The notes beneath the pieces were generated by a model that had not been told where the DNA came from, made no database searches, and worked only from the letters and a program-made list of their open reading frames with translations. Positions 13,090 through 30,964 of a DNA stretch of 64,000 nucleotides are shown one piece after another. Origin of the DNA: a bacterium (GTDB lineage: Bacteria; Zhuqueibacterota; Zhuqueibacteria; Zhuqueibacterales; Zhuqueibacteraceae). Both the position numbers and the translations under genes were made by a program. Position 1 is the first letter of the stretch, and every line of letters starts with the position of its first letter. The DNA is taken from positions 1 to 64,000 of the forward strand of contig JBIOXB010000086.1 in assembly GCA_044869275.1 (NCBI GenBank), given 5' to 3'.

Positions 13090-14274
13090 ATGCCCAAGAA
13101 CCTGACGCTGGGTGGTTTCAAGTCTGAAGCAGCAGCATCTATTCATTCTCAGGAAACAATAACGGAAGCAGGTAATGTAAAAGAATCTGATCTTGCCAAG
13201 ATTCCGTATCAAAATTCGAACGATGGCGATCGTGCGTTTATTCTTACCCATCCTGAGGGTTCGCTACCCAGTGAGTCACTTCATGGTCTGGCTCAAGCGA
13301 ACCAAAGTCATCAGCCTCTGGAATTGGCAGACATTGACGTTCCCAATCTGGTCGGCAAAAGCGATAAGATGCGCGCGATATGTCGCCAAATCGGCCGAGT
13401 TGCACCGACCGATTGCACCGTCTATGTTCAAGGTGAAAGTGGAACAGGTAAGGAATTGGTGGCACACGCCATCCATTTTCACAGCGTGCGGGCAAGCCGG
13501 CCCTTTGTCCGTGTGAATTGTGCGGCGTTGCCAGAAAGCTTGATCGAAAGTGAATTGTTTGGGCATGTGCGAGGCGCTTTTACCGGTGCCGTACGCAACC
13601 GTGCCGGTCGTTTTGCGCAAGCTGAAAAAGGTACGATCTTACTCGACGAAGTAGGATCATTGTCGCTGGTCAATCAAGGCAAATTGTTGCGCGTTTTGCA
13701 AGAAAGGGAATACGAACCCGTCGGCTCTTCGTTGTCGCAAAGCGCGAACGTGCGCGTGATTGCCACGGATAATCATGACCTGGGGCAAATGGTACATACC
13801 GGTACCTTCCGTGAAGATTTGTTTTTTCGGCTGAATGTTTTCACCATCTCTATGCCAGCGTTGCGTGAGCGCCTGGAAGATCTGCCCTTGCTGCTTGAGC
13901 ATTTTTTGGAGAAATATGTCCACCTGAGCCCTGCGCGGGCGCCAGATGTTTCTCGAGAAGCGCTGTTGCTTATGCAGAATTATCACTGGCCTGGCAACGT
14001 CAGGGAATTGGAAAACGCCATTCAGCGTGCTTTAATTGTTGCAACTTCCGGGCTCATCGAACCCACCAACTTGCCACTGCCCATGCCTCGCTCTGTACCG
14101 CTGCTGAGTCATGCTGGCAAAGGGCTGTGCCTGCGTGAACGGTTGCGGCGCTGCGAAAAACAGGCGATCGAAGAAGCACTCGCACGCTGCGAGGGCGTGA
14201 AAAAAAGCGCTGCGCAGTTGTTGGGCATCGACCCCAAAAACTTGAGCCATTTGTTGCGCAAGCATGGGTTGTGA
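13090..14274 (+). CDS. sigma54-dependent transcriptional activator (AAA+, Fis-type HTH) with no recognisable sensor domain
   Basis: [49 protein letters not shown]-terminal HTH. Confidence 0.93.
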   Translation: MPKNLTLGGFKSEAAASIHSQETITEAGNVKESDLAKIPYQNSNDGDRAFILTHPEGSLPSESLHGLAQANQSHQPLELADIDVPNLVGKSDKMRAICRQIGRVAPTDCTVYVQGESGTGKELVAHAIHFHSVRASRPFVRVNCAALPESLIESELFGHVRGAFTGAVRNRAGRFAQAEKGTILLDEVGSLSLVNQGKLLRVLQEREYEPVGSSLSQSANVRVIATDNHDLGQMVHTGTFREDLFFRLNVFTISMPALRERLEDLPLLLEHFLEKYVHLSPARAPDVSREALLLMQNYHWPGNVRELENAIQRALIVATSGLIEPTNLPLPMPRSVPLLSHAGKGLCLRERLRRCEKQAIEEALARCEGVKKSAAQLLGIDPKNLSHLLRKHGL

Positions 14275-14568: not shown

Positions 14569-14583
14569 CGGCATGATACTTGT
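14569..14583 (+). promoter_or_regulatory. Candidate sigma54 (-24/-12) promoter of the cluster
   Basis: CGGCATG-N4-TTGT versus consensus TGGCACG-N4-TTGC; correct spacing, mismatch at the -12 C; about 110 bp upstream of 14695. Confidence 0.45.
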
Positions 14584-14694: not shown

Positions 14695-15348
14695 ATGCAT
14701 GACTTGGATCGCACCACTGCAGAATTTGAAGCGGATCATGAGTATTATGAATCCGACGGACATGAGACGGAGTACGCCGGAGAATACGCAAGCGAAGTTC
14801 TGAGCGAAGCCGATGAGATGGAATTGGCTGCCGAGCTGCTCGAAGTCGCCTCAGAAGAAGAACTCGACCGTTTCTTCGGAAAGATTTTTCGCAAAGTTGC
14901 CGGCACGGTCGGCCGTGCCATCAAATCACCGATCGGCCAGAAAATTTTGGGCGGCTTGAAGGGCATCGCCAAAAAAGCCTTGCCGATTGCAGGGGGCGCG
15001 CTGGGCAGTGTTATCGGCGGCCCGGTCGGCGGCGCCATTGGCGGTAAGCTCGGCTCGTTCGCCAGCAACTTGTTCGAAGCGGAATTTGAGGGCATGAGTT
15101 ACGAGGACCAAGAGTTTGAAGTGGCGCGTCGTCTTGTGCGTTTGAGCGCGGAGGCCGCGAGTAATGCTGCGCAAGCGCCGGCTTCGCAAAATCCACAGGT
15201 TGCGGCGAATCAAGCCATGACCGCAGCCGCGCAACGGCACGCGCCGGGACTGCTCAGACAACGCTACGGCGTCGGCGCTTATGGCGGTGGCGGCCGCAGT
15301 GGGCGCTGGGTGCGTCGCGGACGCAAGATCGTGATCTACGGTGCATGA
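14695..15348 (+). CDS. Hypothetical protein: acidic leader, cationic amphipathic/glycine-zipper core, basic C-terminus
   Basis: RBS AAGGAG; 22 D/E in the first 58 aa; residues 59-127 have 11 K/R and no D/E; GGALGSVIGGPVGGAIGGKLG. Confidence 0.85.
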   Translation: MHDLDRTTAEFEADHEYYESDGHETEYAGEYASEVLSEADEMELAAELLEVASEEELDRFFGKIFRKVAGTVGRAIKSPIGQKILGGLKGIAKKALPIAGGALGSVIGGPVGGAIGGKLGSFASNLFEAEFEGMSYEDQEFEVARRLVRLSAEAASNAAQAPASQNPQVAANQAMTAAAQRHAPGLLRQRYGVGAYGGGGRSGRWVRRGRKIVIYGA

Positions 15349-15355
15349 GTACGCC

Positions 15356-16678
15356 ATGAGCACTGTATTCACAGCGGGCCCGACTTTGGCACAAGAAGCT
15401 GCGGCCTTGCTCACGCGCTTGGATCGTCTCAAGCCTTTCGCCTTGCACGTGCCGATGGTCGTCGCCGCCGCGATTTCACCCTCAGCACAAACGGCGATCG
15501 AGCAGCACATGCTTGCGGCACGGCGCGAATTGCGCGAACGCGTGCATGAATACCTCGACTGGTTATACGGTCCGGTAAGCCGGCGCGCGCCGCCACACGA
15601 GGTTCAACGCCGGTTTACGTTACTGCGCTTGCGTTTCAATCTGGTGCTCTCGGAGTTCGATATTTTTTCGGATGCGTTGACGCAACGCGCGGAGCACGAG
15701 CACGGCGTGTGGATGGCGGGACTCGATGCTCTCGCGGCTGATGCCTTGCGCTTGCCCGGAGATTATTACGAAACACCGCCGGTGATCTGCTATCTCGATC
15801 GCGGCATCGGCGCGGCGATTCGGCGCGTGCGCACGCGTTTGCCGGGCGGCAAGAAAAATCCTGTCGCTATCATTCGCGTGCCGCGCGAGCGTATGGTAGG
15901 CAGCGGCATCGCCTCCTCGCTCGTTCACGAAGTTGGACATCAAGCGGCGGCGCTCTTGGGATTGCTCGATTCTTTGCGGCCGGAGTTGCATGAGCAAATC
16001 GAGCTTCATCCCGAAACGCAACAAGCTTGGCAACTGTGGCAGCGCTGGCTCTCTGAAATCGTCGCGGATTTTTGGTCGGTCGCAAAGCTAGGCATTGCGG
16101 CAACATTTGGGTTGATGGCAGTGGTGAGTTTGCCGGCGCCATTCATGTTCCGCGTCAGCTCGGAGGATCCGCATCCTATGCCGTGGTTCCGGATGAAAAT
16201 CAGTTGTGCCATGGGCGAGGCGCTTTATCCCCATCCGCAATGGCGAGCTCTGGCAAAATTGTGGGAAGCGCTTTATCCCACGAATAATCTCGACGAGCCG
16301 CAGCGCGAACTCCTCCTCATGCTGGAGCGCAACCTGCCGGAGTTTGCAGATTGGCTGGTCGAGCATCGCCCGGCTTCATTGCACGGCGCTACTTTGCGCG
16401 AAGCGATTGTGGAAGAAACGCGCACACCGCAACGGTTGCTAGGGCTTTATCACGCGTGGGCCAAAGACCAGCAACAATTGCGTGAAACGCCGCCCTCCTT
16501 GGCATTCGCTGCTATCGGCCAAGCGCGCGCCGAGAACCAAATCAGTCCGCGCAAGGAAAGTGATTTGCTCGCGCAATTGCTCAACCACTGGGCGCTGCAG
16601 AATGCGCTCAATACTTCGGCAGAGTGCAGCGTGCGAACCGGCGCGCGGGAGTTTGCGCCGCGTATGTTGGCGAGTTGA
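15356..16678 (+). CDS. Putative zinc metallopeptidase (HExxH, gluzincin-like)
   Basis: LVHEVGHQ followed by WLSEIVAD; start could instead be the GTG at 15341. Confidence 0.65.
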   Translation: MSTVFTAGPTLAQEAAALLTRLDRLKPFALHVPMVVAAAISPSAQTAIEQHMLAARRELRERVHEYLDWLYGPVSRRAPPHEVQRRFTLLRLRFNLVLSEFDIFSDALTQRAEHEHGVWMAGLDALAADALRLPGDYYETPPVICYLDRGIGAAIRRVRTRLPGGKKNPVAIIRVPRERMVGSGIASSLVHEVGHQAAALLGLLDSLRPELHEQIELHPETQQAWQLWQRWLSEIVADFWSVAKLGIAATFGLMAVVSLPAPFMFRVSSEDPHPMPWFRMKISCAMGEALYPHPQWRALAKLWEALYPTNNLDEPQRELLLMLERNLPEFADWLVEHRPASLHGATLREAIVEETRTPQRLLGLYHAWAKDQQQLRETPPSLAFAAIGQARAENQISPRKESDLLAQLLNHWALQNALNTSAECSVRTGAREFAPRMLAS

Positions 16679-16843
16679 GGTTTCATTTGTCGCCATTTGT
16701 ATAAAAAGTATTCTATTGAATGACATCGTTTGGGTGGAGCCGCACTCAACCACCATAGCAAATGATCTGCACTCAAATCATCATGCCGGCGTTTTTCGCA
16801 GGAAATACCAACTGCGTTTGAACATTTTTGAAGGAGACATGAC

Positions 16844-18937
16844 ATGGAAATAGTAAAGCAGCAGCAACGGTCGCAGCCGGGCAAACTCGTCGTGTTGGTC
16901 TACGCCACACATGATGCAGCCGGGGCGATTCGGACACCGATTGTCAATGCTGAGTTCACCGTATCCGCTGTCCAACCCGATAAATCGATTGCGGGCGTCA
17001 CTGGCACGGACGGCTCTTTCGCAACGGAACTGCCCACTGGGAATGGCTATAAAATAACCGGCGAAGTCTTTGGGCAGCCTTTCGAACAAGAAGCGATTGG
17101 GATCGAAGCCGGTTGCTCAACAGATGTGGAGTTCCCTATCTACATTGGGCTCTCTCTCAAATCGTACATCTTCAAAGAGGATTGCAGCCCTCCGATGGAG
17201 TGCACGAATATCACTTCGGGCAGAGTGGTGAAGCTGGTAGCGCAACATGCAATTCCTGAGGGGCGATTGGAGAGAAAAGCGGTTAGACTATCAATCTCCT
17301 CCAACGCCGGCATTGTGGAGAATTTTTCGGAGGGGGCAAACTCTGTCGAGGCTTTTTGGAACACAGCCGGCACGGAAGGACAAGTGGCGGTTGACGCAAA
17401 AATCAGTGAAGAAGGAAGCGCATTCACCGTTCTGAGAATGATTCTCAATATCCTTCGGCACCCTGTGACGGCCATCGGCGGGAACGTAACTGTCGGCATG
17501 CGCCGAACGGCTTTGCCGCCCACGAACGATCTTCTGCTCTGGGTAGTGATCAAAAAGAGCACGGATGCTCTCGCGTTCGAAAATTACAATCGCTTCATGG
17601 ACATCGTGCTGTGCGGCAAATCTCCTAGTGCCAGTGAAAGGGGCAGGATTGCCAATGCACAAAATACCTTCAATACCCTCGAGAACAAACGCTTTCTGCC
17701 CTACAATGACGTCGAAGCCTATCGTTTACTCAAAGCCGCAACCGAGGCTTTCGTGATGGTCAATTGTGGCGTCGGCCTAAAAGACTATAAAGGCCTATTC
17801 GACGAAGTTGACGTCGATGAAGTGATCAGTCGGGTCGGGATCAACCTCAATGTGGGTCAGCTTGGGAAGTTTTGGGAGGAGTACCTCGAAGACGTGAACG
17901 GCGAGAAAGATGCGACGCTGCCGTATCTCGCGCTCATTCGCGAGAAGCTCAAAGACTCTCCCATCAAACAAGCGATCTTTTCTAACGTTCTGCCGGTTTC
18001 TCTGCCGCAAGATTGCTTCGGCATCATTCGCGAAAAGCTCACCAATCCTTGCTTGCTCGAGCTGATTTGGTCGTATTGGCATGAAGAAGGCATGCTGGTG
18101 CAAACCATGAATTCCGTGGCCATGCGCTTCCAGAACATTCGCGCCAATACCAGCGGGCGCGACCCGCTTGCCAATTTGGAGATCGATCCGCTGCGGCCGC
18201 TGAACAACCTGTTCTGGGGTCACATTCAGGACGAGCAGCATCGCTTGAGCGTGACGCGCCGCGCATATGAGTATGATCATCATTACGGCATGTCACTTTA
18301 CGGCAAGGCGTTGTCGAACTTCCGTCCGGCGGACAGCCGCTCGCAGTTTTTGGAGTCATTTCACAATCTGCTGCACCTCGCCAACATCTTCTTCAAAGAA
18401 GATGATGACACCACGATGATCGCCGATGCATTTGCCGTGCTCAACGCACTCAAGGACGTTCACTTGGTGCTCTCCGAAGGCGCGCACAATCAGTTTGGCG
18501 ATTTGCCCTCGACGGCGCGCATGGAAATGATGATGCAGCAATGGCTGCTCGCGCGTCCGGAGTTCCGCGAGTTCCTGCCCACGCGCATCATGGTGGCGTA
18601 TCCCGAGCCGTGGATGGACCGCGTGGATGCCATGAAGAAGCTGCAAGGTTGGACGGATACTTCCATCCTGCACTTCCGCAATATGGCGATCTTCGGCGAG
18701 CAGATCGTGTTGTCCGTGCGCTATGGCAGTTGGAGCGAAGTCAACAATCCCGTGCAAGCGGCCAATTGGGCGCGTTTCTGGCGTGCGGAGATTCAGGGTT
18801 ACATTCACGCCTATCGCGCGGCGACGGCGGTCGATCTCACCTTGGACGTTCACGACGTGAAGGAAGCCGCGCAGCGGTATCTGCCGCCCTCGGTGCATTT
18901 GCGCAATCGCGTCTCACGACAAATGCAAAACGTTTGA
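16844..18937 (+). CDS. Large hypothetical protein (beta-rich N-terminus, helical C-terminal region)
   Basis: 697-aa ORF, RBS GAAGGAGA; N-terminus resembles carboxypeptidase-regulatory/Ig-like folds (TGTDGSF..ELPTG..Y); no signal peptide. Confidence 0.85.
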   Translation: MEIVKQQQRSQPGKLVVLVYATHDAAGAIRTPIVNAEFTVSAVQPDKSIAGVTGTDGSFATELPTGNGYKITGEVFGQPFEQEAIGIEAGCSTDVEFPIYIGLSLKSYIFKEDCSPPMECTNITSGRVVKLVAQHAIPEGRLERKAVRLSISSNAGIVENFSEGANSVEAFWNTAGTEGQVAVDAKISEEGSAFTVLRMILNILRHPVTAIGGNVTVGMRRTALPPTNDLLLWVVIKKSTDALAFENYNRFMDIVLCGKSPSASERGRIANAQNTFNTLENKRFLPYNDVEAYRLLKAATEAFVMVNCGVGLKDYKGLFDEVDVDEVISRVGINLNVGQLGKFWEEYLEDVNGEKDATLPYLALIREKLKDSPIKQAIFSNVLPVSLPQDCFGIIREKLTNPCLLELIWSYWHEEGMLVQTMNSVAMRFQNIRANTSGRDPLANLEIDPLRPLNNLFWGHIQDEQHRLSVTRRAYEYDHHYGMSLYGKALSNFRPADSRSQFLESFHNLLHLANIFFKEDDDTTMIADAFAVLNALKDVHLVLSEGAHNQFGDLPSTARMEMMMQQWLLARPEFREFLPTRIMVAYPEPWMDRVDAMKKLQGWTDTSILHFRNMAIFGEQIVLSVRYGSWSEVNNPVQAANWARFWRAEIQGYIHAYRAATAVDLTLDVHDVKEAAQRYLPPSVHLRNRVSRQMQNV

Positions 18938-18949
18938 AGCGGCTCGCCC

Positions 18950-20026
18950 GTGCTCGACTTCACCTCCGCGTTGTATCTGGGCATGCAACACGCGAGTCGC
19001 GCCTTGCGGCCTTGGCCCCAATTGACTACAGGATTGCCCGCGAGTTTAGCTGTGCCTTCGCTCGCGCGAAAGCTGGCGCAACAGTTGGCCGGGTTGCAAG
19101 GCTGTGAAAGCGCCACTCTTGCCGCTTCCACGCTGCATCTCGCTTGGGACGTGTTCGGCATGTTGGCGAAAGGCGCCATCGCGATTTACCTGGATGCCGG
19201 CGTTTATCCCATCGCGCGTTGGGGCGTGGAGCGAGCGGCAGCCGCCGGCGTGCCCGTGCGGAAGTTTGCGCATTATGAGGTGAAAGCTTTGCAACGGTAT
19301 TTGCTGCGTCATGCTTCTTCAAGGCGAATACCGGTGGTTGTAACCGACGGCCTCTGCCCCGAATGCGGTGAAGTCGCGCCGCTGGGAGCGTACCTGCAAT
19401 CCGTGCGAAGCCGACGCGGTTACGTGATTGTTGATGACACGCAGGCGCTCGGCATAGTCGGCGCTTCGCCTTCGCGTGCCGCACCGTATGGAAAGGGAGG
19501 AGGCGGTACGTTAAAATGGGCGGATCTTCTCAGTCCAAATATTTTGATGTTCAGCTCATTGGCAAAAGGTTTCGGCGTGCCGCTAGCGGTGCTGTCCGGC
19601 AGCGATGAAATGATTCGACGTTTCGAGCGCGAAAGTGAAACGCGCCGCCATTGCAGCCCGCCTTCGGTTGCCGCGCTACACGCCGCCGAGCTTGCGCTCG
19701 CGGAGAATGAAACAAACGGCGAGACCTTACGCGTGCATCTCGCGCAGCTCGTTCGACATTTTCATGCGCGACTCCATGCCGCAGGATTCTCCGTCAATGC
19801 GGGTTTATTCCCAATGCAGACTTTACAACCAAGTTATGGGATTGACGGGCGCGTGCTGCACGAACGCTTGCTGCGCAAAGGTGTGCGCACGCTTCTGCAA
19901 AGCGGGCGCAACAAGGGCGAGGCGAGAGTCAGCTTCATCCTCGGCGCGCGGCATCAGCTCAACGATATTGATCGCGCGGTGCAAGCGCTTTCTGAATGCG
20001 TGAAGGTCAATGGCAGAAAAATGTAA
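18950..20026 (+). CDS. PLP-dependent enzyme, class I/II fold, divergent BioF/alpha-oxoamine synthase-like
   Basis: LDFTSALYLG, VVTDG..G..APL, IVDDTQALG, SSLAKGFG (PLP lysine). Confidence 0.8.
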   Translation: MLDFTSALYLGMQHASRALRPWPQLTTGLPASLAVPSLARKLAQQLAGLQGCESATLAASTLHLAWDVFGMLAKGAIAIYLDAGVYPIARWGVERAAAAGVPVRKFAHYEVKALQRYLLRHASSRRIPVVVTDGLCPECGEVAPLGAYLQSVRSRRGYVIVDDTQALGIVGASPSRAAPYGKGGGGTLKWADLLSPNILMFSSLAKGFGVPLAVLSGSDEMIRRFERESETRRHCSPPSVAALHAAELALAENETNGETLRVHLAQLVRHFHARLHAAGFSVNAGLFPMQTLQPSYGIDGRVLHERLLRKGVRTLLQSGRNKGEARVSFILGARHQLNDIDRAVQALSECVKVNGRKM

Positions 20027-20128
20027 GACAGAAACATGGCGTTTGACCTCACACCAGAAAGCTGACGATGAGGGGATGAAGCCCTGCAAAGCGGGAGGAA
20101 ATTTTTCTGCCCTCCAGCTTTCTGTCTT
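20012..20128. repeat. 15-bp-period inverted repeat (GRCAGAAAAAT type)
   Basis: GGCAGAAAAAT..AAGACAGAAA ... ATTTTTCTGCC..TTTCTGTCTT; same family as 39166..39271. Confidence 0.7.
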
Positions 20129-20153
20129 TCGAATGTTTTTAGGAGAACCTGCC

Positions 20154-20873
20154 ATGTGGACCACAACCGACGGCTACGTTCTGCACCTGCCGCGCTCGGG
20201 ATTGATGAAGATTCTGGCGCGACTGCAAGACTCCGGATTGAATGAGTTGATCAAAGACAATCAAACGCATAATCTCACGCGTGAAGTCATCCACTCCGTG
20301 GGGCGGCTGGCGCAAAACGCGCGCCATAACGGGAACGTTCTGCATAACCAATCGCAGCAACGTTATGCGATGTTCACTTCGCCAACTGGTGGCGGCAAAT
20401 ATCAATTGCTCGCGCGCCCGCTGCGTATCGGCCATAGCGCAATTCTCTTTGTGCACTTCGAGCCGGAGAAAACGCCGCAAGGTTTCGCCATCGGAGAAGA
20501 GGTTAAAGTTCTGCTTACGCGCAAGCCGCGTTTTCATCCCAACGTGCTCAAAAGCACGGAAGCATTGCAGCGCGAAGCTCGCAAGATATTTTTCCGTGCC
20601 CATCCACGTCTCACCGGCAAAGTCGAAGTGTGGCATCGTGTGCCGCTCGAATGGCGGCGGCACTTTCCGAAAATGAATCCCAATCGTTTGAGCAATCTTA
20701 TTGCGCTGCAAACCAAAGCGCAGCACAGTAACGTGGCAAACATGTGGATAAATTTTCGGGAACGTTTGCAGCGCCGTGAGCATGCACCGGCGCCGAAAGA
20801 GATTATGCGATTCGTGCGCGTGGTGGATCGCGTGTTGTTCATTCCACCGGCGGTGAAAATACGCCGGCAATAA
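20154..20873 (+). CDS. Hypothetical protein with possible C-terminal HNH-like (His-Me finger) domain
   Basis: RBS AGGAGA; FFRAHPRLTGKVEVWHRVP...LSNLIAL...QHSNVANMW pattern; very basic. Confidence 0.55.
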   Translation: MWTTTDGYVLHLPRSGLMKILARLQDSGLNELIKDNQTHNLTREVIHSVGRLAQNARHNGNVLHNQSQQRYAMFTSPTGGGKYQLLARPLRIGHSAILFVHFEPEKTPQGFAIGEEVKVLLTRKPRFHPNVLKSTEALQREARKIFFRAHPRLTGKVEVWHRVPLEWRRHFPKMNPNRLSNLIALQTKAQHSNVANMWINFRERLQRREHAPAPKEIMRFVRVVDRVLFIPPAVKIRRQ

Positions 20874-20888
20874 CAAAACGGAGTTCTT

Positions 20889-23708
20889 ATGAAGAGGCCA
20901 TACACCGCAAACATTTTTGAAAACATTGCTGAGCTTGATTTTGAGGTGGACGGCTTTGAAATCGAAAGCGCCGAGACCTGGCAAGGCGAAGTCAATCGCA
21001 AAAGCCGAGATCATATTCCCTGGGTGCAGAGCGCGTTGAATCGGGAGAACTTCGATGATGAAGAGCTCTTCTCGCTCGATATCTCGGGCGGGCTGCGGGA
21101 CGAGTCGCCATTTCCTGAACCCGAGTCCGCGGATTGGGAATATGAGTCTGCTCTCGATGTGTTGTCTCCCTCTGAACTAAAAGCAGTAAGGATCACCAGT
21201 ACATTTGAGACTGGTCGTGCCGGTGGGTTTGGCGGGCTCACTGGAAATTTTGATGGACAAGGTTTGTCCTTCGGGCTTCTCAATTTCACTATTAAAGCGG
21301 GCAGCCTCATACCTCTCCTCCAGGAGTTCATCAACAAATATCCCGCCCGCTATTCGAGTGCCTTCGGGAAAGATGCTGCGCGCTTCAAAGAGATGGTGTT
21401 TACCACCAAGCCGGACCCAAAGAATCCGAAGCGCCGTATTCGCGACGTAGAACGACAAATGGCGTTTGTAAACCAGATGAACGCCATTCCAAAGAAGGCA
21501 AAGGGCAACAGGATCATCGAGCCCTGGAAGACCTATTTCGGCCGGCTCGAGAACGATCCTGAATTCCAAAAAATTCAGGTTAAGGCCGTCCGAGGAGCGC
21601 TGGATCGCGCGCGCTACTGGTACAACTATTTCGATTTCAAGACGGAACGCGGCTTTGCCTTCATGTTCGACCTTGTCTCGTCAGCCGGCGGAGCCTGGCT
21701 GAATGCAGCGAAATTCAAGGGAAAACGCAGAGAGCTTCTCCGGAAGATGTTGGCTGACAAAAAGACACGGCTGGGCCGAGGTACGCTCACCGAGCTCGAG
21801 AAAATGGAAGTTATCGCGAACATGATTGCGGATGTCTCTTTGGAAGAGTGGCGAGAAAAGGCGCGCGTGCGCAAATTGTGGTTTGTTCGCGGCAGTGGAA
21901 AGGTCCACGGGAGATTTTTCGATATCAAGAAAGATTTTGGCGTTACAGATGACCCGCCGGTTTTCGGCGCGGGCGCATCCCCCCGCCCCAGCGCATCTGA
22001 ACTTGCAGGGGACTGGGGCTATCCTTCCGGCTTCGCATGGCCGGGCGAAATGGAATTCGAGACGGCGCGACCGCAGAAACGCAAAAACCCGGGAACGGAC
22101 TGCGGCAGCTCGGGTGCGCCGGCTGCGTTGGTATCACAACCCGGAGGCCGCTGCATTGGACCAACGCCACCGGTCTGTCCCTCTGTTACAGGTATTCTCT
22201 CGCTGCAAAGCATCGGCAACATTCCGTTTGAATACATCGTGCGTGTAGGGAAGAACAGATCCACAAATCTTATGGTCGTTACGCAACGGCTTCGTCCCCG
22301 CACGCAAAGGTTTTTGCCGTCGGTCCGAACGGCCTTGACGCGGTTTGTCGACAATATGAACCGCTTCGGCATGCCGATCGAAGCGATTTTGACTGCCGGC
22401 TCCTACTGTTGCAGGTGTATCAGCAAAACAAACTCACTCAGCAACCACTCTCACGGCGATGCTTTCGATCTGGTGGGAGTCCGTTGGACTGGGGGGGGCG
22501 AGACCATCGCTCACAATTGGAACACAGCCGAACGAGCTTTGCTCCGCCGAATTAACGCTTGCCTGCGTTTGTCGTTTCCCACCGTGATCGATTACCACCG
22601 CGCGGATCACCGCGACCACTTCCACTGCGATATGAATCGCGGTAATTCACGTAATACACGCAATATACGCCGACCAGATACGCTGCGTTTCACGCAAGAA
22701 GCACTGAGCCTTGTTCTGGGCCGCACTGTGCCTGTGACTGGAAAGCTTGATGCGGCAACACAACGCGCGTTGATCGAATTCGGCGGCACGAATGCTGACG
22801 CGCTGGGAAATTCCGCACAACTCAACGAGATACTCGATCGGCTTTTCACCATTGTCGCGGCGCCTCCCGCCGGAGTGCCACGTGCTGAAGAAGAACTGAA
22901 CTATGAAAGGAGCGCCCCGACGGGCCGGCCCGTCGTCAAAGGCGGTTTGCGTACCAGCCGTGGCAATGAGCCTCCAGGCCTGACGTTGTACGAACAAATT
23001 CCGCTAGGTCAGGAGTCGCCGGCGAAACCGAAGACGGGCATCTTTGTTCCCGTTGGCTTCCGGCCGCAGTCGCAAGTCGACTTGATTATCTATCTGCACG
23101 GGATGAAGGCGCCAAGTGGACTCTCCACGTCGGCGACGATCGACGTGTACTGGTCACGACGCTATCCTTTCCTGCTTCGCGAGGGAGTGAACCAGAGCGG
23201 CAAGAACGTAGTCCTCGTGGCGCCAACTCTGGGTCCTGCATCGCAGGCCGGCAGACTCACGGACCCGGGCGGCTTCGACTGGTACGTGGACCAGGTGATG
23301 AGAGTACTCGCAGAGCGCGGACCCTACCAACAAGCAAGTCAACCACCGCAGGTTGGAAATATTGTTCTCGCGTGCCATTCGGCGGGAGGAAAAATCATGC
23401 GGCTTCTGGCGCTAGGGCAGCATCGCTATTCGAACAGGATTCGCGAGTGTTGGGGATTTGATTGCCTGTACAATTCTCGTGACCCGGAAGTCTGGAGACA
23501 ATGGGCCATCTCCCACCCAAACGTTGGGCTTTTCATCTACTATCTTGGCTCAACCGAAGGTCATTCAAAGAACCTGCAAGGAATAGGAAAACCGCCAGTT
23601 CCGCCCCCGGACAACGTTAAGGTGGAGAAATCCAACGCCCGCTACCATAACCTGGTGCCGATGGCCCACTGGGTCGATCGAATCAGGCGGGCGCCATTCT
23701 TGAAATGA
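20889..23708 (+). CDS. Multidomain protein: acidic leader, lysozyme/chitosanase-like domain, extensin-C/M15-like peptidase, PG-binding-like domain, alpha/beta hydrolase-like domain
   Basis: ITSTFETG...GNFDGQGLSFGLLNF; GSYCCR...SNHSHGDAFD...HRDHFHCD; TQEALSLVLG...VTGKLDAATQRALIEF; IYLHG...CHSAGG...WGFDCLY. Confidence 0.7.
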   Translation: MKRPYTANIFENIAELDFEVDGFEIESAETWQGEVNRKSRDHIPWVQSALNRENFDDEELFSLDISGGLRDESPFPEPESADWEYESALDVLSPSELKAVRITSTFETGRAGGFGGLTGNFDGQGLSFGLLNFTIKAGSLIPLLQEFINKYPARYSSAFGKDAARFKEMVFTTKPDPKNPKRRIRDVERQMAFVNQMNAIPKKAKGNRIIEPWKTYFGRLENDPEFQKIQVKAVRGALDRARYWYNYFDFKTERGFAFMFDLVSSAGGAWLNAAKFKGKRRELLRKMLADKKTRLGRGTLTELEKMEVIANMIADVSLEEWREKARVRKLWFVRGSGKVHGRFFDIKKDFGVTDDPPVFGAGASPRPSASELAGDWGYPSGFAWPGEMEFETARPQKRKNPGTDCGSSGAPAALVSQPGGRCIGPTPPVCPSVTGILSLQSIGNIPFEYIVRVGKNRSTNLMVVTQRLRPRTQRFLPSVRTALTRFVDNMNRFGMPIEAILTAGSYCCRCISKTNSLSNHSHGDAFDLVGVRWTGGGETIAHNWNTAERALLRRINACLRLSFPTVIDYHRADHRDHFHCDMNRGNSRNTRNIRRPDTLRFTQEALSLVLGRTVPVTGKLDAATQRALIEFGGTNADALGNSAQLNEILDRLFTIVAAPPAGVPRAEEELNYERSAPTGRPVVKGGLRTSRGNEPPGLTLYEQIPLGQESPAKPKTGIFVPVGFRPQSQVDLIIYLHGMKAPSGLSTSATIDVYWSRRYPFLLREGVNQSGKNVVLVAPTLGPASQAGRLTDPGGFDWYVDQVMRVLAERGPYQQASQPPQVGNIVLACHSAGGKIMRLLALGQHRYSNRIRECWGFDCLYNSRDPEVWRQWAISHPNVGLFIYYLGSTEGHSKNLQGIGKPPVPPPDNVKVEKSNARYHNLVPMAHWVDRIRRAPFLK

Positions 23709-23721
23709 GTGCCTTAGCTTC

Positions 23722-23790
23722 ATGAAATGGGAATTTCAATTCAGGCCGGAGCCGTTTCCCTATCCTGTCCACTTTTTGCCACCAACATGA
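23722..23790 (+). other. 22-codon ORF resembling an isolated cargo leader (remnant or small peptide)
   Basis: MKWEFQFRPEPFPYPVHFLPPT*; compare MRRQFEFEAEPF (25903) and RFTSHFEPF (27271). Confidence 0.4.
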
Positions 23791-23845
23791 CTTTGACAAG
23801 AATACTGAACCGTATCCCCAAGCACTCGTCAAGAGGAATACCATC

Positions 23846-24685
23846 ATGAATGACGAATTAGACGGCTATGAAATGTCAGACTTCGAAGATTTCGAGTTCG
23901 AAGACGAAGATGAATTTGAAGATTCCGAATTTCGTTCGCGCGGCGCAATGCCGATGCGAAGGCGCGTGCCCATGGCAGCGCGGCCGCGAATGACGCGTGC
24001 CGGTATGCGCCAACGAATGCGCCCCGGCGTGCAAAGGAGAACTCCAGGCTTGCGGTCGAGACGTATGAGAATGCTAGGCCGCCCACGAATGCGACGTCCG
24101 GGTTTGCGGCCACGCCCGCCATTGTCACGTCCTGCTTTCCGACCGGGGCCTCGTCCCGTCCCGGCAAGAGTTGTAGCAGCTAGGCCCACGCCGCTAGTCG
24201 TATCTTCAGCACAGCCGGGCCGCGTGCGATATTATGGCTATGGTTATCCGTATTATGCTATTCCATACGCATTTCCGTATTCCTATCCGCCCAGCAACGG
24301 TCATGATGATGGCACAGGTGCCGGCGCAGCTCTCGATCCCAATGTCTTGGTAGACATGGGCGCAGAACCCGGTGCAGACTCCTCGCCGGATACGGGCGCG
24401 GATTTTCCTCCCGATGGTGGAGCAGTGCAGGAACCGGCGCCGGGAGTTGACATGGGTTCGGAGCCCGGCACGGACTCGGCCGCAGATGCGAGCGCGGACT
24501 TCGCGCCGGATGACGGCGCAGGCGTGAGCGCTGATAGTGAAGCGGACGCGGGCGGCGGAGCAACCGCTCCAGATCGAAGAGATCACAGCGGGCGCAAAGC
24601 CGGCTATCGTCTCGGTTATCAACGCGGCTTCAGAGCCGGCTACGCTGCTCGACGCAGGCCATGTCGATGTGGACGTCAAAATTGA
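23846..24685 (+). CDS. Low-complexity block-charged hypothetical protein
   Basis: RBS GAGGA; E/D/F leader, R/P/M-rich block, Y/P block, two 32-aa acidic repeats (96-bp period at about 24350 and 24446), basic tail. Confidence 0.75.
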   Translation: MNDELDGYEMSDFEDFEFEDEDEFEDSEFRSRGAMPMRRRVPMAARPRMTRAGMRQRMRPGVQRRTPGLRSRRMRMLGRPRMRRPGLRPRPPLSRPAFRPGPRPVPARVVAARPTPLVVSSAQPGRVRYYGYGYPYYAIPYAFPYSYPPSNGHDDGTGAGAALDPNVLVDMGAEPGADSSPDTGADFPPDGGAVQEPAPGVDMGSEPGTDSAADASADFAPDDGAGVSADSEADAGGGATAPDRRDHSGRKAGYRLGYQRGFRAGYAARRRPCRCGRQN

Positions 24686-24772
24686 TTTCGTTTAACGTCA
24701 TCGGAGCAGACGAGAAAGCGTTTAAGTTGTTCGATTCCGAGTTGAATGATTGGAAAACAGTGAGGTCCAGCT

Positions 24773-25873
24773 ATGCCATCTTATAACGCTCAGACGACGC
24801 CAAACGGCAGTGTCACCAATGGTCATATCCGCGAGCATTGTTCCGCACACCGAGACCAGATTACTACTATCGGGCGAAATCAAGGTCAGCAAGTTCGCGT
24901 AAAAAGATTTACTCCGGACGGGGTCACGCTGCTGGATCTTGCACTCTACACCGTCATCGATCTGCACGATGAGGCGCCGGAGGTTGTCTTAGTGGGCTTC
25001 GGAGAACCTCAAGATCTGCAAGATCGCCTGGGGCTGTCCGGCACCGGCACGTTTACGGGTAAGATTGATTCTGAAGTCCCGCATCCTACCTTCACGGATA
25101 CCGAGGCGAAGAACAACAGCGAGTTCGTCGAACGCCTGACTGACAATGGCCGCCACCGGGGATTGATTGCCATTGCTCCGCACGGCGGCAATATCGAGCC
25201 ACACACCGACATGCAAGCAGAGCGCGTTCGCGAGAGGCTCGCGTCCAAGTGTGTTTCCGCGTGGTTTTGCAAGGGCTTTAAAAAAAATGGCGGCGCCTTT
25301 GATCGTTGGCACATCACCTCAACGGATATCAGCGAGGAGTCATTCCCCAAGCTGAAAACGGTGATCGGGCGCCACTTCCAATACGCAGTCGCATTCCATG
25401 GCTGGAATGAGGCTACCATCTGTATCGGTGGATCAGCGCCACGCGAGTTGAAGCAGCAAATCAAAACGAAAATCGTGAGCGCCCTCTCGGGTTCGGGAAT
25501 TGCCGTGGCCACCGATGATGAGGGAACGTGTCCCGATGGCTTCACCGGCACTGACCCGAAGAACATTGTGAACCGCCTTGGCACAAACGGCGTTCAGATT
25601 GAACAATCGATCAAGGCTCGCACCGACTACCGTATTCAAATTGCCGATGCGGTCGCCGATGTCATCGGTCCCAAGATCAGGGTTTGTACGGCGCCGGTGT
25701 TTAAGGGTTCTAGCGCCTGGGCATGCTTCTTCAAGAGCCTCGGTTACAGTGTGCTAGTGATGATGTTGATTCCGCTGGCTTGGGTATCTTCTACCAAATG
25801 CGAAATCAATCGCCTGCTGTTCCGCAGGAGGAACTGCCACAAGGGAAACACCGGTCCCTGCATCGAGTTATGA
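24773..25873 (+). CDS. Poly-gamma-glutamate hydrolase family protein (PghP/YjqB, DUF867-like)
   Basis: IAPHGGNIEPHT, WHITST, AVAFHG, NIVNRL..NGVQIEQS; RBS GAGG. Confidence 0.8.
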   Translation: MPSYNAQTTPNGSVTNGHIREHCSAHRDQITTIGRNQGQQVRVKRFTPDGVTLLDLALYTVIDLHDEAPEVVLVGFGEPQDLQDRLGLSGTGTFTGKIDSEVPHPTFTDTEAKNNSEFVERLTDNGRHRGLIAIAPHGGNIEPHTDMQAERVRERLASKCVSAWFCKGFKKNGGAFDRWHITSTDISEESFPKLKTVIGRHFQYAVAFHGWNEATICIGGSAPRELKQQIKTKIVSALSGSGIAVATDDEGTCPDGFTGTDPKNIVNRLGTNGVQIEQSIKARTDYRIQIADAVADVIGPKIRVCTAPVFKGSSAWACFFKSLGYSVLVMMLIPLAWVSSTKCEINRLLFRRRNCHKGNTGPCIEL

Positions 25874-25902
25874 TGTCGGAGTGAATTTAAGAGGAGCAAA
25901 TC

Positions 25903-27234
25903 ATGCGACGTCAATTTGAGTTTGAAGCAGAGCCGTTCGAGCTCGACCCGGAATTTGATTCGGAGTGGGAGACTTTCGATTCCGAGCTGGAGGAAGAGTG
26001 GTATGGCGAGGCGAGTCACGGCAGTGCTCCAGCACTGGCCGCGCCCAGTATTCATAACCTCAAGAACAATATCGTCAGGCTGGCGAACCAAGAGTGGTTG
26101 GCGTGGGATCGCGGCAGGAAAAAAGAATCGGATCCGAGCATACGCGCGAAATTGAGAGAATATTGGACCACGGGCGCCAGAGTGCAAGCAATATTTCGTG
26201 AGCCGAATTGGTGGTCGGCGCATCCGTGGAGCGCGGCTTTCATTTCGTGGATCATGCGAAAGGCCGGAGCAGGCAACACTTTTCGCTATGCGGCCGCGCA
26301 TGCGATTTACACTAAAGCGGCCAAAGACAATCGGCTCGCCAATAATGCGAATCCTTTCAAGGCCTTTCGCCTTAGAGAAGTACGACCGCAAGCTGGTGAT
26401 TTGGTTTGCAGGAGTCGCGCGGGCAGCGGTGCCAATTATGATAATATTCACGCGGGCCACAAAACACATTGTGATATTGTCACCGAAGTTCATCCTGGCC
26501 GTTTAACGACGATCGGAGGAAATGTCAGCAATTCGGTCTCTAAAACCGCGGTCCGTCTTGACGCGAATGGATTCATCAATCAACCCGGATACTTTGCTGT
26601 CATCAAAGTGGGCGCGCCTGCACATCCAGTCAGGACAACGACGCCGGGATTGGAACTGGAAGAGACCACACCTTTTGATACGGAATCTGAGTTTTACGAC
26701 CCTGAATTTGAGGAAGAGTCGTGGGAAGAAGTAATGGAGAGCGATTTCAGGCCAACCCCGGTTGAGCCTCATGGCGGTGGGCGGATTCAAAACAAAACGG
26801 CACCGAAGCCCTCAGACGTGGTTACCGTCTCAGGATACGGCGGCAAACGTGTTCCGCTTCATCGCCTGGCCGCCGATGCATGGCGCGCACTAGTGATTGC
26901 TGCGCGCACGGACGGCTTACAAGCACCTTTGTTGCTTCCCGTATCCGGTTTTCGCGACCCTCAACATCAACAACGGCTTTGGAACGCTGCGTTAGCGCGT
27001 TATGGTTCTGCTCAAGAAGCTCGCAAATGGGTGGCTCCGCCGGGTGGCAGCGCCCATCAATCGGGCCGGGCGATTGATTTTTATCTAGGCGGCAGCAATT
27101 CGAGCCGTAATGTCAGCCGCCTGCAAGCCACTCCCGCTTATAGATGGCTCGTTACCAACGCCGCGCGCTTCGGGTTTTATCCTTATTCGCGTGAACCATG
27201 GCATTGGGAATATAATCCCCCGGCCTCAGCTTAA
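25903..27234 (+). CDS. Acidic leader + DUF2272 (CHAP/NlpC-like) domain + acidic linker + M15B D,D-carboxypeptidase (VanY-like)
   Basis: PWSAAFISW, THCDIV, TIGGNVSNSV; SGFR..APPGGSAHQSGRAID..EPWHWEY; RBS GAGGAG. Confidence 0.82.
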   Translation: MRRQFEFEAEPFELDPEFDSEWETFDSELEEEWYGEASHGSAPALAAPSIHNLKNNIVRLANQEWLAWDRGRKKESDPSIRAKLREYWTTGARVQAIFREPNWWSAHPWSAAFISWIMRKAGAGNTFRYAAAHAIYTKAAKDNRLANNANPFKAFRLREVRPQAGDLVCRSRAGSGANYDNIHAGHKTHCDIVTEVHPGRLTTIGGNVSNSVSKTAVRLDANGFINQPGYFAVIKVGAPAHPVRTTTPGLELEETTPFDTESEFYDPEFEEESWEEVMESDFRPTPVEPHGGGRIQNKTAPKPSDVVTVSGYGGKRVPLHRLAADAWRALVIAARTDGLQAPLLLPVSGFRDPQHQQRLWNAALARYGSAQEARKWVAPPGGSAHQSGRAIDFYLGGSNSSRNVSRLQATPAYRWLVTNAARFGFYPYSREPWHWEYNPPASA

Positions 27235-27270
27235 CTCACCATCGAATGAATTGTTTTATCCGGAAGGCGA

Positions 27271-28224
27271 ATGATGAACCGACGATTCACTTCTCATTTC
27301 GAGCCGTTTCATGCCTACTCGGAATTCGACGAAACCCTTGACCTGATCGGTGAATACGATGAGGCTTCTGAGTCTTTCGCTCCCGAATTGGGTGAGAGCT
27401 GGTTGGACGAGTTGAATGAAAGTCGTGCCACCCGCTCGATCCCGCGATTGATGAAGAAGCCGGAAACCGACCCGCCAGCAGTCACGCTTTATGTCGGAAT
27501 CGATCTGAAAATTATTCACCGCGATGGAACGAAGGGGACTGCGCCCATGACCGGGATTTTTGTCCCCGCCAACTACAGGCCCAAGCCAACAGTCGATTTG
27601 ATTCTTTATCTGCACGGCCACAAAGGAGCTTATCCGGGCGCCCATATTCCTATTGACGGCTATTGGAGCAGTCGAAGACCTCCCTCTTACTTCCCATTAC
27701 GAAAGGAATTAAACGCTAGCAACAAGAATGTCATTCTCGTAGCGCCGACGTTAGGTCCAAAATCAGAGTACGGCCTTTTGACAAGACCCACGAGGTTTAA
27801 TCAATACCTGGATGAGGTGATGGCAGCGCTGAGAGCGCACGGCCCACATAAAGCTCAAGCGCAATCCCCCGTCGTCGGGAAGATTATCTTGGCCTGCCAT
27901 TCGGGCGGTGGAAGCCCGATGCTCCGGTTGGCAAAGCTGAAAGGCAGCGGCGGCTTCGCAGACAAAGTTATTGAATGCTGGGGATTTGATTGTTTGTACG
28001 GCATCGGTGTCGATGCGGCGTGGGCCAATTGGGCGAGATCGCATTCGCATGCCAAGCTTTTCATTTATTACCTCGGTTCTACGGAAAGCAACTCTAAAAA
28101 GCTTAGGGCAAAGAATCTCCACAATGTGTTTGTCGAACGGTCGAGCGCTCGCGGGCATTATTGGGTGCCGAAAGCACATTGGCGGCATCGTATCCAACAA
28201 GCGCGCTTTCTGCTGAATCGATGA
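27271..28224 (+). CDS. Acidic leader + alpha/beta hydrolase-like domain
   Basis: LYLHG, LACHSGGG, CWGFDCLY, GHYWVP; paralogous to the C-terminal domain of 20889..23708. Confidence 0.75.
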   Translation: MMNRRFTSHFEPFHAYSEFDETLDLIGEYDEASESFAPELGESWLDELNESRATRSIPRLMKKPETDPPAVTLYVGIDLKIIHRDGTKGTAPMTGIFVPANYRPKPTVDLILYLHGHKGAYPGAHIPIDGYWSSRRPPSYFPLRKELNASNKNVILVAPTLGPKSEYGLLTRPTRFNQYLDEVMAALRAHGPHKAQAQSPVVGKIILACHSGGGSPMLRLAKLKGSGGFADKVIECWGFDCLYGIGVDAAWANWARSHSHAKLFIYYLGSTESNSKKLRAKNLHNVFVERSSARGHYWVPKAHWRHRIQQARFLLNR

Positions 28225-28305: not shown

Positions 28306-29760
28306 ATGATGAATATCGCCGGCCCGATCTCATACGCTCATCGCAATCGCCCTCGCTTCGTCGAGGAACTCAAAGCGTTTGTCCGTTTTCCGAGCATCAG
28401 CTCCCAACCCCGGCACGCGGTTGACGTGAAAATGTGCGCCGGGTGGTTGGCGCATCATCTGCGGAGCATCGGCATGGAAAATGTCAAAATCGCGCCCACC
28501 GTGCGCCACCCGATCGTCTGCGCAGATTGGCAATACCGGCCCGGCGGTCGAACGGTTTTGATTTATGGCCACTACGATGTGCAGCCCGCCGACCCGCACA
28601 GCCAGTGGCATTCGCCTCCGTTTGCGGCGATCGTGCACAGCGATAATCTTTATGGCCGAGGTGCATCAGATGACAAAGGGCAGATGTTCGCTCATCTCAA
28701 AGCCGTGGAATCCTACCTGCAAACGAGCGGTGAGCTGCCGGTGAACGTCAAATGCCTTTTTGAAGGCGAGGAGGAAATCGGCAGTCCGAACCTTGCGTCA
28801 TTTTTGGAACGCCATCGCCCCGCCTTTGCTGCTGATGTCGCGGTACTTTCAGACATGCCCATGCTCGCGCCCAATCGCCCGGCGATTACCTATGCGATGC
28901 GCGGTGCTCTGAGCCTGGAGCTGGAGGCATATGGGGCGAAACAAGACTTGCATTCCGGAAATTTCGGTGGCGCTGTACACAACCCTCTTGAGGCTCTTTG
29001 TGAAATGATCGGTCAACTCCATGATGCCAGCGGGCGCATAGTTATTCCTGGATTTTACGACGACGTGCGAGCATGGAGCGATGATGAGCGTGATTATATG
29101 GCACGTGCGGGGCCGACCAATGCGCAAATACTTCACGCGGCGGAAACAGAGAGCGGCTGGGGCGAGCCCGGTTATACTGCTTACGAGCGCATAACGATTC
29201 GTCCTGCACTGTCGGTGAATGGCATTGTCGGCGGTTATCAAGGCGCGGGCGGCAAAGCGGTCATTCCCGCTTACGCAATGGCCAAACTCAATTTTCGGCT
29301 TGTCCCGGATCAGAATCCCCGCAAGGTCGAGCAGCTCTTTCGTCAATACCTCGCGCGGATTACACCTCCCGCCATTCGTTGCGTCGTTCGCACGAACCTG
29401 GCTGCTCATCCGGTTTTTATCGATCGCAAACATCCCGTCATGGGCGCCGCCGCCGTTGCTTGTTCCAAAGGGTTTGGAAGACTGCCCGTATTTCTGCGGT
29501 CTGGAGGGACGATTCCAATGGCTCACACGTTCCAAAATGTGCTCGGCCTGCCGACGGTGCTGATGGGCTTTGCATTGGCGGACGATCGCATGCATGCGCC
29601 CAACGAAAAATTCCACCTGCCGAATTTTTACAACGGGATCAAGACGGCAATTTTCTTCCTGGCAGAAGTTGGCGCCATTCGACCTTCGCAAGCGCGTCGC
29701 TTACAGGAAACTAGTGCCCTCCGACCGCCTGAGGCTCGAGCAGGGAGTTGTTCCGCATGA
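28306..29760 (+). CDS. M20-family dipeptidase
   Basis: IYGHYDVQP, YGRGASDDKGQ, FEGEEEIGS, DLHSG, GGTIP, HAPNEKF. Confidence 0.93.
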   Translation: MMNIAGPISYAHRNRPRFVEELKAFVRFPSISSQPRHAVDVKMCAGWLAHHLRSIGMENVKIAPTVRHPIVCADWQYRPGGRTVLIYGHYDVQPADPHSQWHSPPFAAIVHSDNLYGRGASDDKGQMFAHLKAVESYLQTSGELPVNVKCLFEGEEEIGSPNLASFLERHRPAFAADVAVLSDMPMLAPNRPAITYAMRGALSLELEAYGAKQDLHSGNFGGAVHNPLEALCEMIGQLHDASGRIVIPGFYDDVRAWSDDERDYMARAGPTNAQILHAAETESGWGEPGYTAYERITIRPALSVNGIVGGYQGAGGKAVIPAYAMAKLNFRLVPDQNPRKVEQLFRQYLARITPPAIRCVVRTNLAAHPVFIDRKHPVMGAAAVACSKGFGRLPVFLRSGGTIPMAHTFQNVLGLPTVLMGFALADDRMHAPNEKFHLPNFYNGIKTAIFFLAEVGAIRPSQARRLQETSALRPPEARAGSCSA

Positions 29761-30563
29761 TTATCGACGCTCATTGCCACGCCGGCCCGGGAGACGGCTT
29801 CACTGGTCCATGGGATACGCGGGCCTCGCTCAAGAAATACGTACGCTGGGCCGATGAGGCCGGTATTCACCGCACCGTGCTGTGGGCTGCCCTGCACACC
29901 GATTACGCTGTCGCCAATCGTGAAGTCGGCCGCATCGTCGCCAGCAACCCGCAGCGGTTCTACGGTTTTGCCTTCGTGCATGCGGAGCGTGATCGCGGCC
30001 GCATTCGCCGCATGGTGCAAGAGGCCGTGGAGAGCTATGGTTTCTGCGGCATCAAAGTGCATCGCCGTGACGCACGCATCAGCCGCGAAATCTGCGAAAC
30101 AGCACGCGCCTTTGCTCTTCCCGTTGTGTATGATCCAATGGGCGAAGCGGCTGTGGCAGAATTGCTCGCGAGCGAGTACCCGGATGTTCCTTTTATCATT
30201 CCTCATTTAAGCAGCTTTGCGGATGATTGGGAGGCGCAACTGGCTTTTGTTGCTCATCTCGCCCGGCATCCGAACATCTACACGGACACCTCCGGTGTGC
30301 GGCGTTTCGATTTACTTGAACAGGCTGTGCGGCGGGCGGGCGCGCGCAAGATTCTCTTTGGCTCGGACGGCCCGTGGCTGCATCCCGGCGTTGAGCTCGC
30401 CAAGGTTCATGCGCTCGGCCTACCGGCTCACCAACAACGGCTGATCTTGGCTGGGAATTTTTTGCGACTCATCGCGCGCGTACAACAAAAATCGCTGATG
30501 CCCGACAGCCGAGCCGATCAACCCCTCGATGCTATGAACGGCCACGTCTCGTTTGGATCATGA
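29757..30563 (+). CDS. Amidohydrolase family protein (amidohydro_2)
   Basis: IIDAHCH, GIKVH, IIPH, YTDTS, ILFGSDGP; ATGA overlap with the M20 gene. Confidence 0.9.
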   Translation: MIIDAHCHAGPGDGFTGPWDTRASLKKYVRWADEAGIHRTVLWAALHTDYAVANREVGRIVASNPQRFYGFAFVHAERDRGRIRRMVQEAVESYGFCGIKVHRRDARISREICETARAFALPVVYDPMGEAAVAELLASEYPDVPFIIPHLSSFADDWEAQLAFVAHLARHPNIYTDTSGVRRFDLLEQAVRRAGARKILFGSDGPWLHPGVELAKVHALGLPAHQQRLILAGNFLRLIARVQQKSLMPDSRADQPLDAMNGHVSFGS

Positions 30564-30964
30564 ACTCTTGCTCTGCAATTCTGGTGTGCGATCGCGACCA
30601 GCTTTTTCGCGAAACGCTCAAAAACTTTCTGCTCGCGGCGGGTTATGCAGAAGTGGAAATCGTAACCACGGCGCGTTCGGCCCTTGCCATGCTGCGTCGC
30701 GAGCGCTTCGCCTGTGTGTTGATTGGCATGTCGCGCCCGTTCTCTTGTAGGCGCCGCCTGGCAGCCATCGCGCAACAACGGCAACCACAGGCAAAAGTCT
30801 TCATGCTCGTGGCGGCAGAAGATCACCCTCTTATTCACGATGTCTCATTTGAATATATCATCAAAGAGCACGTTTTCTCGAGTATAATGGAATTGCTCGA
30901 GGAGCCGGCGAGCGCGAAGCAGGTAGCGAAGATTGAGAAGCCTCGCGGCAAAAGGTTCTCATGA
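30560..30964 (+). CDS. Receiver-like domain protein lacking the phospho-acceptor Asp
   Basis: ILVCDRD...L..AGY.EV...A..AL..L...FACVLIGMS (G at the usual D position); ATGA overlaps on both sides. Confidence 0.6.

Follow-up and report, generated by a model that had tools for sequence, protein, structure and literature searches.

Positions 1 to 64,000 of contig JBIOXB010000086.1 (GenBank assembly GCA_044869275.1, a bacterium of the Zhuqueibacteraceae) form the stretch analysed here, called the window. It contains an operon in which Glu-rich acidic blocks recur on varied proteins. The operon is a single run on the + strand: genes A, B, C and D, a slot of six genes, then K and L, flanked on either side by sigma-54 activators. 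The acidic blocks are a real, system-linked feature, and no known family fits them. They may be pro-spacers that mask charge and are cut by a predicted zinc protease, B; judged from the sequences, this reading has about an even chance of being right.

A first-pass annotation of the window had described a Glu/aromatic-rich leader on five unrelated proteins. All five segments are present, in + strand open reading frames (ORFs) starting at 14695, 20889, 23846, 25903 and 27271. A block score with self-set weights, 2 for Glu, below 1 for Asp and aromatic residues and negative for Lys/Arg, detects ten blocks in the window: A has two, F (20889) four, I two, and G and J one each. Those in A lie at 14722..14868 (A1, residues 10-58) and 15073..15120 (A2, residues 127-142). 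F carries F1 (20916..20990, ending WQGE), F2 (21045..21176), the internal F3 (21999..22061, WPGEMEFE) and the internal F4 (22887..22907), which is weak with a score of 8. The block of G is at 23852-23932, those of I are at 25915-26010 and 26653-26748, and that of J is at 27298-27420; all are on the + strand. The first block of I (residues 5-36) has a net charge of -15, and the segments downstream of the window blocks are K/R-rich, as described earlier, at +11 to +26 net. Slot genes 20010 and 24773 carry no block. The blocks do head five proteins, but they also stand internally, before further domains; 'leader' is too narrow a term, because five of the ten, among them the WPGE example (residues 384-387 of the 939-residue F), have their start beyond residue 50. 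Nor are the five proteins all unrelated, as J and the C-terminal domain of F share 44-48% identity. An acid/aromatic window filter, defined after the five window segments had been seen, retains 36 of the genome's 28,222 stop-to-stop ORFs, and five of the 36 are these window proteins. The genome-wide search for further cargo found none elsewhere in this genome.

C has 478 matches in the genome collection; the best 80 of the 478 loci were examined for gene content. The order A-B-C-D-slot-(K)-L is conserved in relative loci. B is present in 78 of the 80, A and D in 72 each, an activator in 65, L in 59 and K in 14. The window's individual slot genes recur in only 0 to 6. The protein at 14695, first taken for one of the variable cargo proteins, is the conserved core protein A. 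Block statistics were taken from 39 relative loci, dereplicated at 75% C identity; slot ORFs came from a simple script, a few are probably mis-called frames, and none was dropped. A strong N-terminal block is found in 35/59 slot proteins and 52/63 A proteins. Elsewhere in the core it occurs once in 150 proteins (B 0/37, C 1/38, D 0/34, L 0/30, K 0/11), and the genome background outside the operon is 36/6320 ORFs of at least 200 amino acids (aa). The blocks follow the variable slot of the operon across many taxa, which supports the proposal of a shared, system-specific signal. The first-pass annotation would have been refuted by homologous domains outside such clusters that carry the same leaders, and this did not hold for the two families examined: of 52 DUF2272/VanY proteins from 201 genomes that lie outside clusters, none bears a strong block and four bear weak ones (7 to 8.4), with 30 of 34 VanY places retrieved and most of the proteins from distant subfamilies. 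The single in-cluster VanY of this check has a block.

Distribution of the operon is patchy. B matches 4/61 genomes around its own genome (own included, two of them weak) and 6/201 around another, G061 (two of them weak). Cultured hosts include Janthinobacterium, Massilia, Variovorax, Nitrosomonas and Ensifer adhaerens; the system is thus directly testable. Reduced clusters, in which block-bearing cargo genes are few or absent and some of which are without a detected D, are seen at loci L168 (Paraburkholderia phymatum pBPHY01), L227, L057 and L074.

The first-pass annotation had also named recurrent micro-motifs. In the eight window cargo blocks these are enriched over shuffled sequence ([FWY]E 19 vs 11.2; W-x-G-E 3 vs 0.1; EPF 2 vs 0.3), as is E-[FWYLM]-E (10 vs 4.4). 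In 88 blocks from relatives, however, EPF is not enriched (4 vs 4.4) and W-x-G-E is rare (4). The pattern there is one of alternation: E-[FWYLM]-E occurs 107 times against 36 in shuffled blocks, and EE 53 times against 152. Glu stands two places before the last Glu in a fraction of 0.69 of these blocks and one place before it in 0.09; the shuffled value is 0.31 (maximum 0.43). In metagenome loci (83 blocks, flanking noise included) Glu stands two places before the last Glu in 0.59, against 0.23.

The 59 slot proteins contain 59 internal blocks. Only 1/54 internal blocks falls inside a Pfam match where 14.1 are expected, a test made on 36 of the 67 proteins scanned with Pfam (those with matches, near-duplicates omitted); the 67 comprise 65 of 133 slot ORFs and two long A-type proteins. 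A purely N-terminal targeting leader is therefore less likely, and cleavage or a pro-piece fits better, since the blocks recur internally between domains. Charge neutralisation, also suggested in the first pass, is supported: the segments after blocks are net positive in 86/86 cases (6 from the window), with a mean of +8.4 per 100 aa, and block charge is anti-correlated with the charge of the following segment (rho -0.35). The p value of 0.001 in this comparison overstates, because kin are not independent. Control segments from the genome are net positive in 398/705 cases, at +1.4 per 100 aa and with a rho of 0.01.

The slot proteins are mostly peptidoglycan binders and hydrolases, nucleases and proteases without signal peptides. 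Pfam matches were found in 49/67 scanned proteins, and 40/67 match a peptidoglycan-related family (PG_binding_1 26, Amidase_2 11, OmpA 6, VanY 3); other families are trypsin (6), GIY-YIG (5), HNH (1) and PLD (1). Many cargo proteins open with an Arg/Pro-rich stretch. A simple hydropathy test finds a hydrophobic N-terminal stretch in 0/65 slot and 0/64 A proteins, and PADLOC gives no anti-phage defence match for any of nine proteins. GIY-YIG-like cargo ending TNQR-R/L-ELE[LM]E, at L010:12375-13274, L023:12488-13303 and L080:11462-12004, has an acidic block on each side of the domain. Three of eight trypsin ORFs have an xxGxD[DT]R start, which in alignments falls on residue 2 of the chains of 1P3C and V8. 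The last block Glu thus corresponds to residue 1 of solved S1B proteases in two of the eight; in the third it lies three residues before residue 1. We take the 1P3C and V8 chains to begin at the mature N-terminus.

The candidate protease is B (15341..16678, + strand, 440-445 aa), the start of which overlaps the stop of A. It is a predicted zinc metallopeptidase with HExxH (15926-15940), a downstream E..AD and HP..R, motifs which it presumably has in common with M48/gluzincin-type peptidases. All three are invariant in 52 close homologues and in 12 sequences of three subtypes; H196, E197, H200 and E239 are likewise invariant in 52/52 and 12/12. In a model of the whole chain (predicted local distance difference test, pLDDT, 80.9) the putative zinc ligands lie on two confident helices, and residues 152-184 are poorly modelled. 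B differs from M48/gluzincin-type peptidases by an extra N-terminal three-helix bundle and by the lack of a family or fold match.

The 12 sequences from the three B subtypes are 22-57% identical, and subtype II aligns with a probability of 99.6. Both distant subtypes adjoin proteins with an acidic block followed by FLG[KR]L. Subtype II clusters (L087:7372-15648 and L086:6786-13387; also L223) consist of a 790-aa acidic protein with FEEFLGKL, a distant B, a conserved 370-aa protein and an ESPF-led acidic-leader gene, which has peptidoglycan (PG)-binding domains in L087. In the subtype III cluster (L225:5883-12895, minus strand) a distant B is accompanied by two proteins that combine an Asp/Glu block with an Arg-rich part, and by further genes without assignment. 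Many homologues of its B, above 80% identity, are present in Cupriavidus, Azoarcus and Burkholderia ubonensis.

A pro-spacer mechanism would run as follows. Sigma-54 activation would switch the operon on, and the acidic blocks would mask the charge of the cationic modules behind them. B, if an active Glu-directed protease, would cut at the Glu-rich end of the blocks and so free cell-wall enzymes, nucleases and peptides as separate products, which are likely antibacterial. A, processed like cargo, might insert in membranes; together with C it could bring cargo out or onto the target, or the cell may lyse. K and L would recycle the spacer peptides. More speculatively, the M20 dipeptidase K and a poly-gamma-glutamate hydrolase in the slot may be tied to disposal of Glu-rich peptides.

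Several observations weigh against this mechanism. It does not explain the roles of D and L. In some loci cargo genes are few or absent, and 24/59 slot ORFs lack a strong block, some of them probably mis-called frames. Only 8/17 gaps between Pfam matches contain a block. Among 119 homologues of J, counted regardless of genomic context, 78 have no block upstream, 41 have one of any strength and 28 a strong one; as many have none, the domain can exist without it. Plain E-x-E is not enriched in the eight window cargo blocks (19 vs 15.8 shuffled) and only one of the eight ends in E-x-E, so no sharp cut site is definable there. Five of the eight trypsin ORFs, closely related to each other, have no typical start. 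For B, no Pfam, NCBIfam or PDB sequence match was found, and in a fold search of PDB and viral libraries no hit reached E<=0.001; only generic helical bundles and no metallopeptidase turned up. Its protease activity is thus inferred from motifs. No export route was identified for the cargo. Cognate immunity genes were not recognised in the locus maps, for which ORFs below 80 aa were not called and those below 150 aa not examined. The loci are relatives and not independent of each other, and excising acidic blocks by itself shifts the remainder towards positive charge.

The main rival to the pro-spacer reading takes the blocks as uncut docking tags. An extended E-hydrophobic-E strand would bind C or A and pack cargo into a particle or condensate that the operon makes, and B would process only A or some other protein. 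The period-2 pattern suits beta-strand docking. The tag reading also draws on the lack of a signal peptide in all 65 slot proteins scored, the conservation of C and A without assigned function, and the diffuse cut site in the window. Several blocks per chain, placed between domains, would however be superfluous for one-off loading; the match to the trypsin maturation point would not be needed, and the scaling of charge with the following module suits masking. Docking is considered unlikely, though it deserves to be kept in view.

A role as neutral linkers of low complexity or as solubility tags, which would only balance very basic domains and have no part in recognition, is improbable. Glu outnumbers Asp by 872 to 174, EE is avoided and E-hydrophobic-E is enriched, which indicates sequence selection, and the blocks are tied to this operon. 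Their length and sequence do vary widely, tandem repeats included, and J's domain is often without a block, both of which suit a linker.

In a third alternative, tailoring by D (acyl transfer dependent on pyridoxal phosphate, PLP) together with L and K would use the blocks as sites of recognition or modification, in the manner of peptide natural-product pathways. D and L are frequent in the loci, D keeps its PLP lysine, and many cargoes start with a short Arg/Pro-rich peptide. However, the cargo consists mostly of folded enzymes, D is absent from some complete loci, and in the two distant subtypes blocks and B occur with neither D nor L close by; tailoring is very improbable.

Finally, the blocks could load cargo into an extracellular contractile injection system (eCIS) encoded elsewhere. 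The window's own genome (G000) has an eCIS-type locus on contig C217, at about 16500-50600, with a T4 gp19-like tube gene at 48379. The tube gene is found in 4/5 operon-bearing genomes of a first sample and in all four close-B genomes among the 201, against 45/201 overall; eCIS cargo uses disordered N-terminal signals in the available part of PMC12210884. Very little credence can be given to this explanation, as the tube gene is present in only 9/24 further operon-bearing genomes, many of them incomplete, and is missing from one listed as complete, the internal blocks are left unexplained, and structural eCIS genes were not recognised in the loci, where no search by family was made. The C217 locus also includes a 1769-aa ORF with several acidic stretches. 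The sheath gene VipB of type VI secretion systems (T6SS) was found in 0/5 operon-bearing genomes.

Multi-peptide precursors of frogs and bees are analogues of such proteins, and the nearest analogue is the complex antimicrobial-peptide precursor of spider venom. As described in the available part of PMC6832493, spider precursors have an acidic propiece, proposed to prevent harm during synthesis, and spacers with processing quadruplet motifs (PQM) or inverted ones (iPQM). Both put an acidic propiece ahead of a cationic product and line up several products with Glu-containing spacers between them; the acidic spacer before each cationic product is found here in that all 86 segments are net positive. 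The spider precursors, on that description, are eukaryotic, have a signal peptide, are cut after Arg by a separate protease and yield short peptides only. The window operon is bacterial and has Glu-ending blocks, folded-enzyme cargo, a candidate protease in the operon and no signal peptide (0/65 slot and 0/64 A proteins). PQM cleavage has Arg at -1 and Glu at -2 to -4; here Arg follows the last Glu in 21/113 blocks, the block end in Glu being set by the definition used.

Polymorphic toxin systems likewise place fast-changing effector domains (nucleases, peptidases, cell-wall enzymes) beside a conserved core (PMC3482391, Zhang et al. 2012, as far as available). The operon differs in that no known trafficking domain or immunity gene was recognised and in that one chain can hold several effectors together with acidic spacers. 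The available main text of PMC3482391 contains no mention of glutamate-rich, gluzincin, oxononanoate, amidohydrolase or glycine zipper. Loading signals of eCIS and Photorhabdus virulence cassettes (PVC) are also disordered N-terminal segments on unrelated cargo, in the available parts of PMC9054023, PMC12210884 and PMC11297309; the present blocks are also internal, and an eCIS tube gene is not required (9/24). A literature search, within its limited coverage, found no description of the operon. Tentatively, and with somewhat less confidence than in the pro-spacer role itself, the operon may represent an undescribed, widespread weapon system: shuffled polyproteins of acidic spacer plus cationic module, a new family of Glu-directed metalloproteases, and release via A and C without Sec, T6SS or eCIS. 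By analogy, the same tentative reading would make it a bacterial counterpart of the animal antimicrobial-peptide precursors.

The remaining features of the operon lie on the + strand. Upstream is a sigma-54-dependent activator (13090..14274; Pfam Sigma54_activat), followed by a candidate sigma-54 (-24/-12) promoter with a GT variant at -12 (14569..14583), which aligns with the equivalent element in two of three close relatives. The sigma-54 promoter consensus (<=2 mismatches) occurs upstream of A in 24/28 relative loci, against 1.3 expected; the window itself fails this test and has only the variant. A (14695..15348, 217 aa) has no Pfam match. Alignment shows an acidic block, an amphipathic basic helix after E-x-x-F-[LF]-G-K (residues 60-77, hydrophobic moment 0.70), a glycine-zipper-like segment, a second acidic block and a basic C-terminus. 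C (16844..18937, 697 aa, variable N-terminus) forms 1120 clusters at 50% identity and has no Pfam, NCBIfam, PHROG or PADLOC match. D (18950..20026) is a PLP enzyme like BioF/alpha-oxoamine synthase, below the bioF cut-off and with K206 invariant.

In the slot, the gene at 20010..20873 (likely start 20154) is in 0/80 loci; its C-terminal part has a by-eye likeness to what we take to be a degenerate HNH-type nuclease, with no family match. F (20889..23708, 939 aa) is a polyprotein by Pfam, PHROG and block scans: its four blocks precede, in turn, a PG-binding remnant, a phrog_30036-like domain, an extensin-like domain and an alpha/beta-hydrolase-like domain, the last a weak assignment (E 0.012 in F, 0.017 in J). 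The remnant, the leftover start of a PG-binding domain, lies between blocks F1 and F2 (20991-21044); the next domain of F is 70% identical in L026, a sign of cassette shuffling. In G (23846..24685, 279 aa) the block is followed by an Arg/Pro-rich cationic peptide, an Asp/Pro/Ala-rich stretch and a basic tail. The gene at 24773..25873 encodes a poly-gamma-glutamate hydrolase domain (PF05908), with a homologue in the slot of L126. I (25903..27234, 443 aa) is a second polyprotein, in which the two blocks precede a DUF2272/CHAP-like domain and a VanY D,D-carboxypeptidase respectively. J (27271..28224, 317 aa) consists of its block and the alpha/beta-hydrolase-like domain it has in common with F. 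K (28306..29760) is an M20 dipeptidase (NF006053, above cut-off), L (29748..30563) is an amidohydrolase_2 by Pfam, and a receiver protein and a PAS sigma-54 activator follow (30560..32364; Pfam). Further upstream, 10226-11407 encodes a 393-aa protein without a Pfam match, not in the operon of relatives as far as seen; by eye it presumably resembles a circularly permuted ATP-grasp.

If the pro-spacer reading is true, the operon would reveal a new logic of bacterial effector production, in which polyproteins are delimited by spacers and mask themselves, and B would found a new protease family. With the blocks as a simple sequence tag, many unannotated cell-wall enzymes, nucleases and cationic peptides could also be mined. 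Should the blocks be docking tags instead, the operon would still define an undescribed cargo-handling machine.

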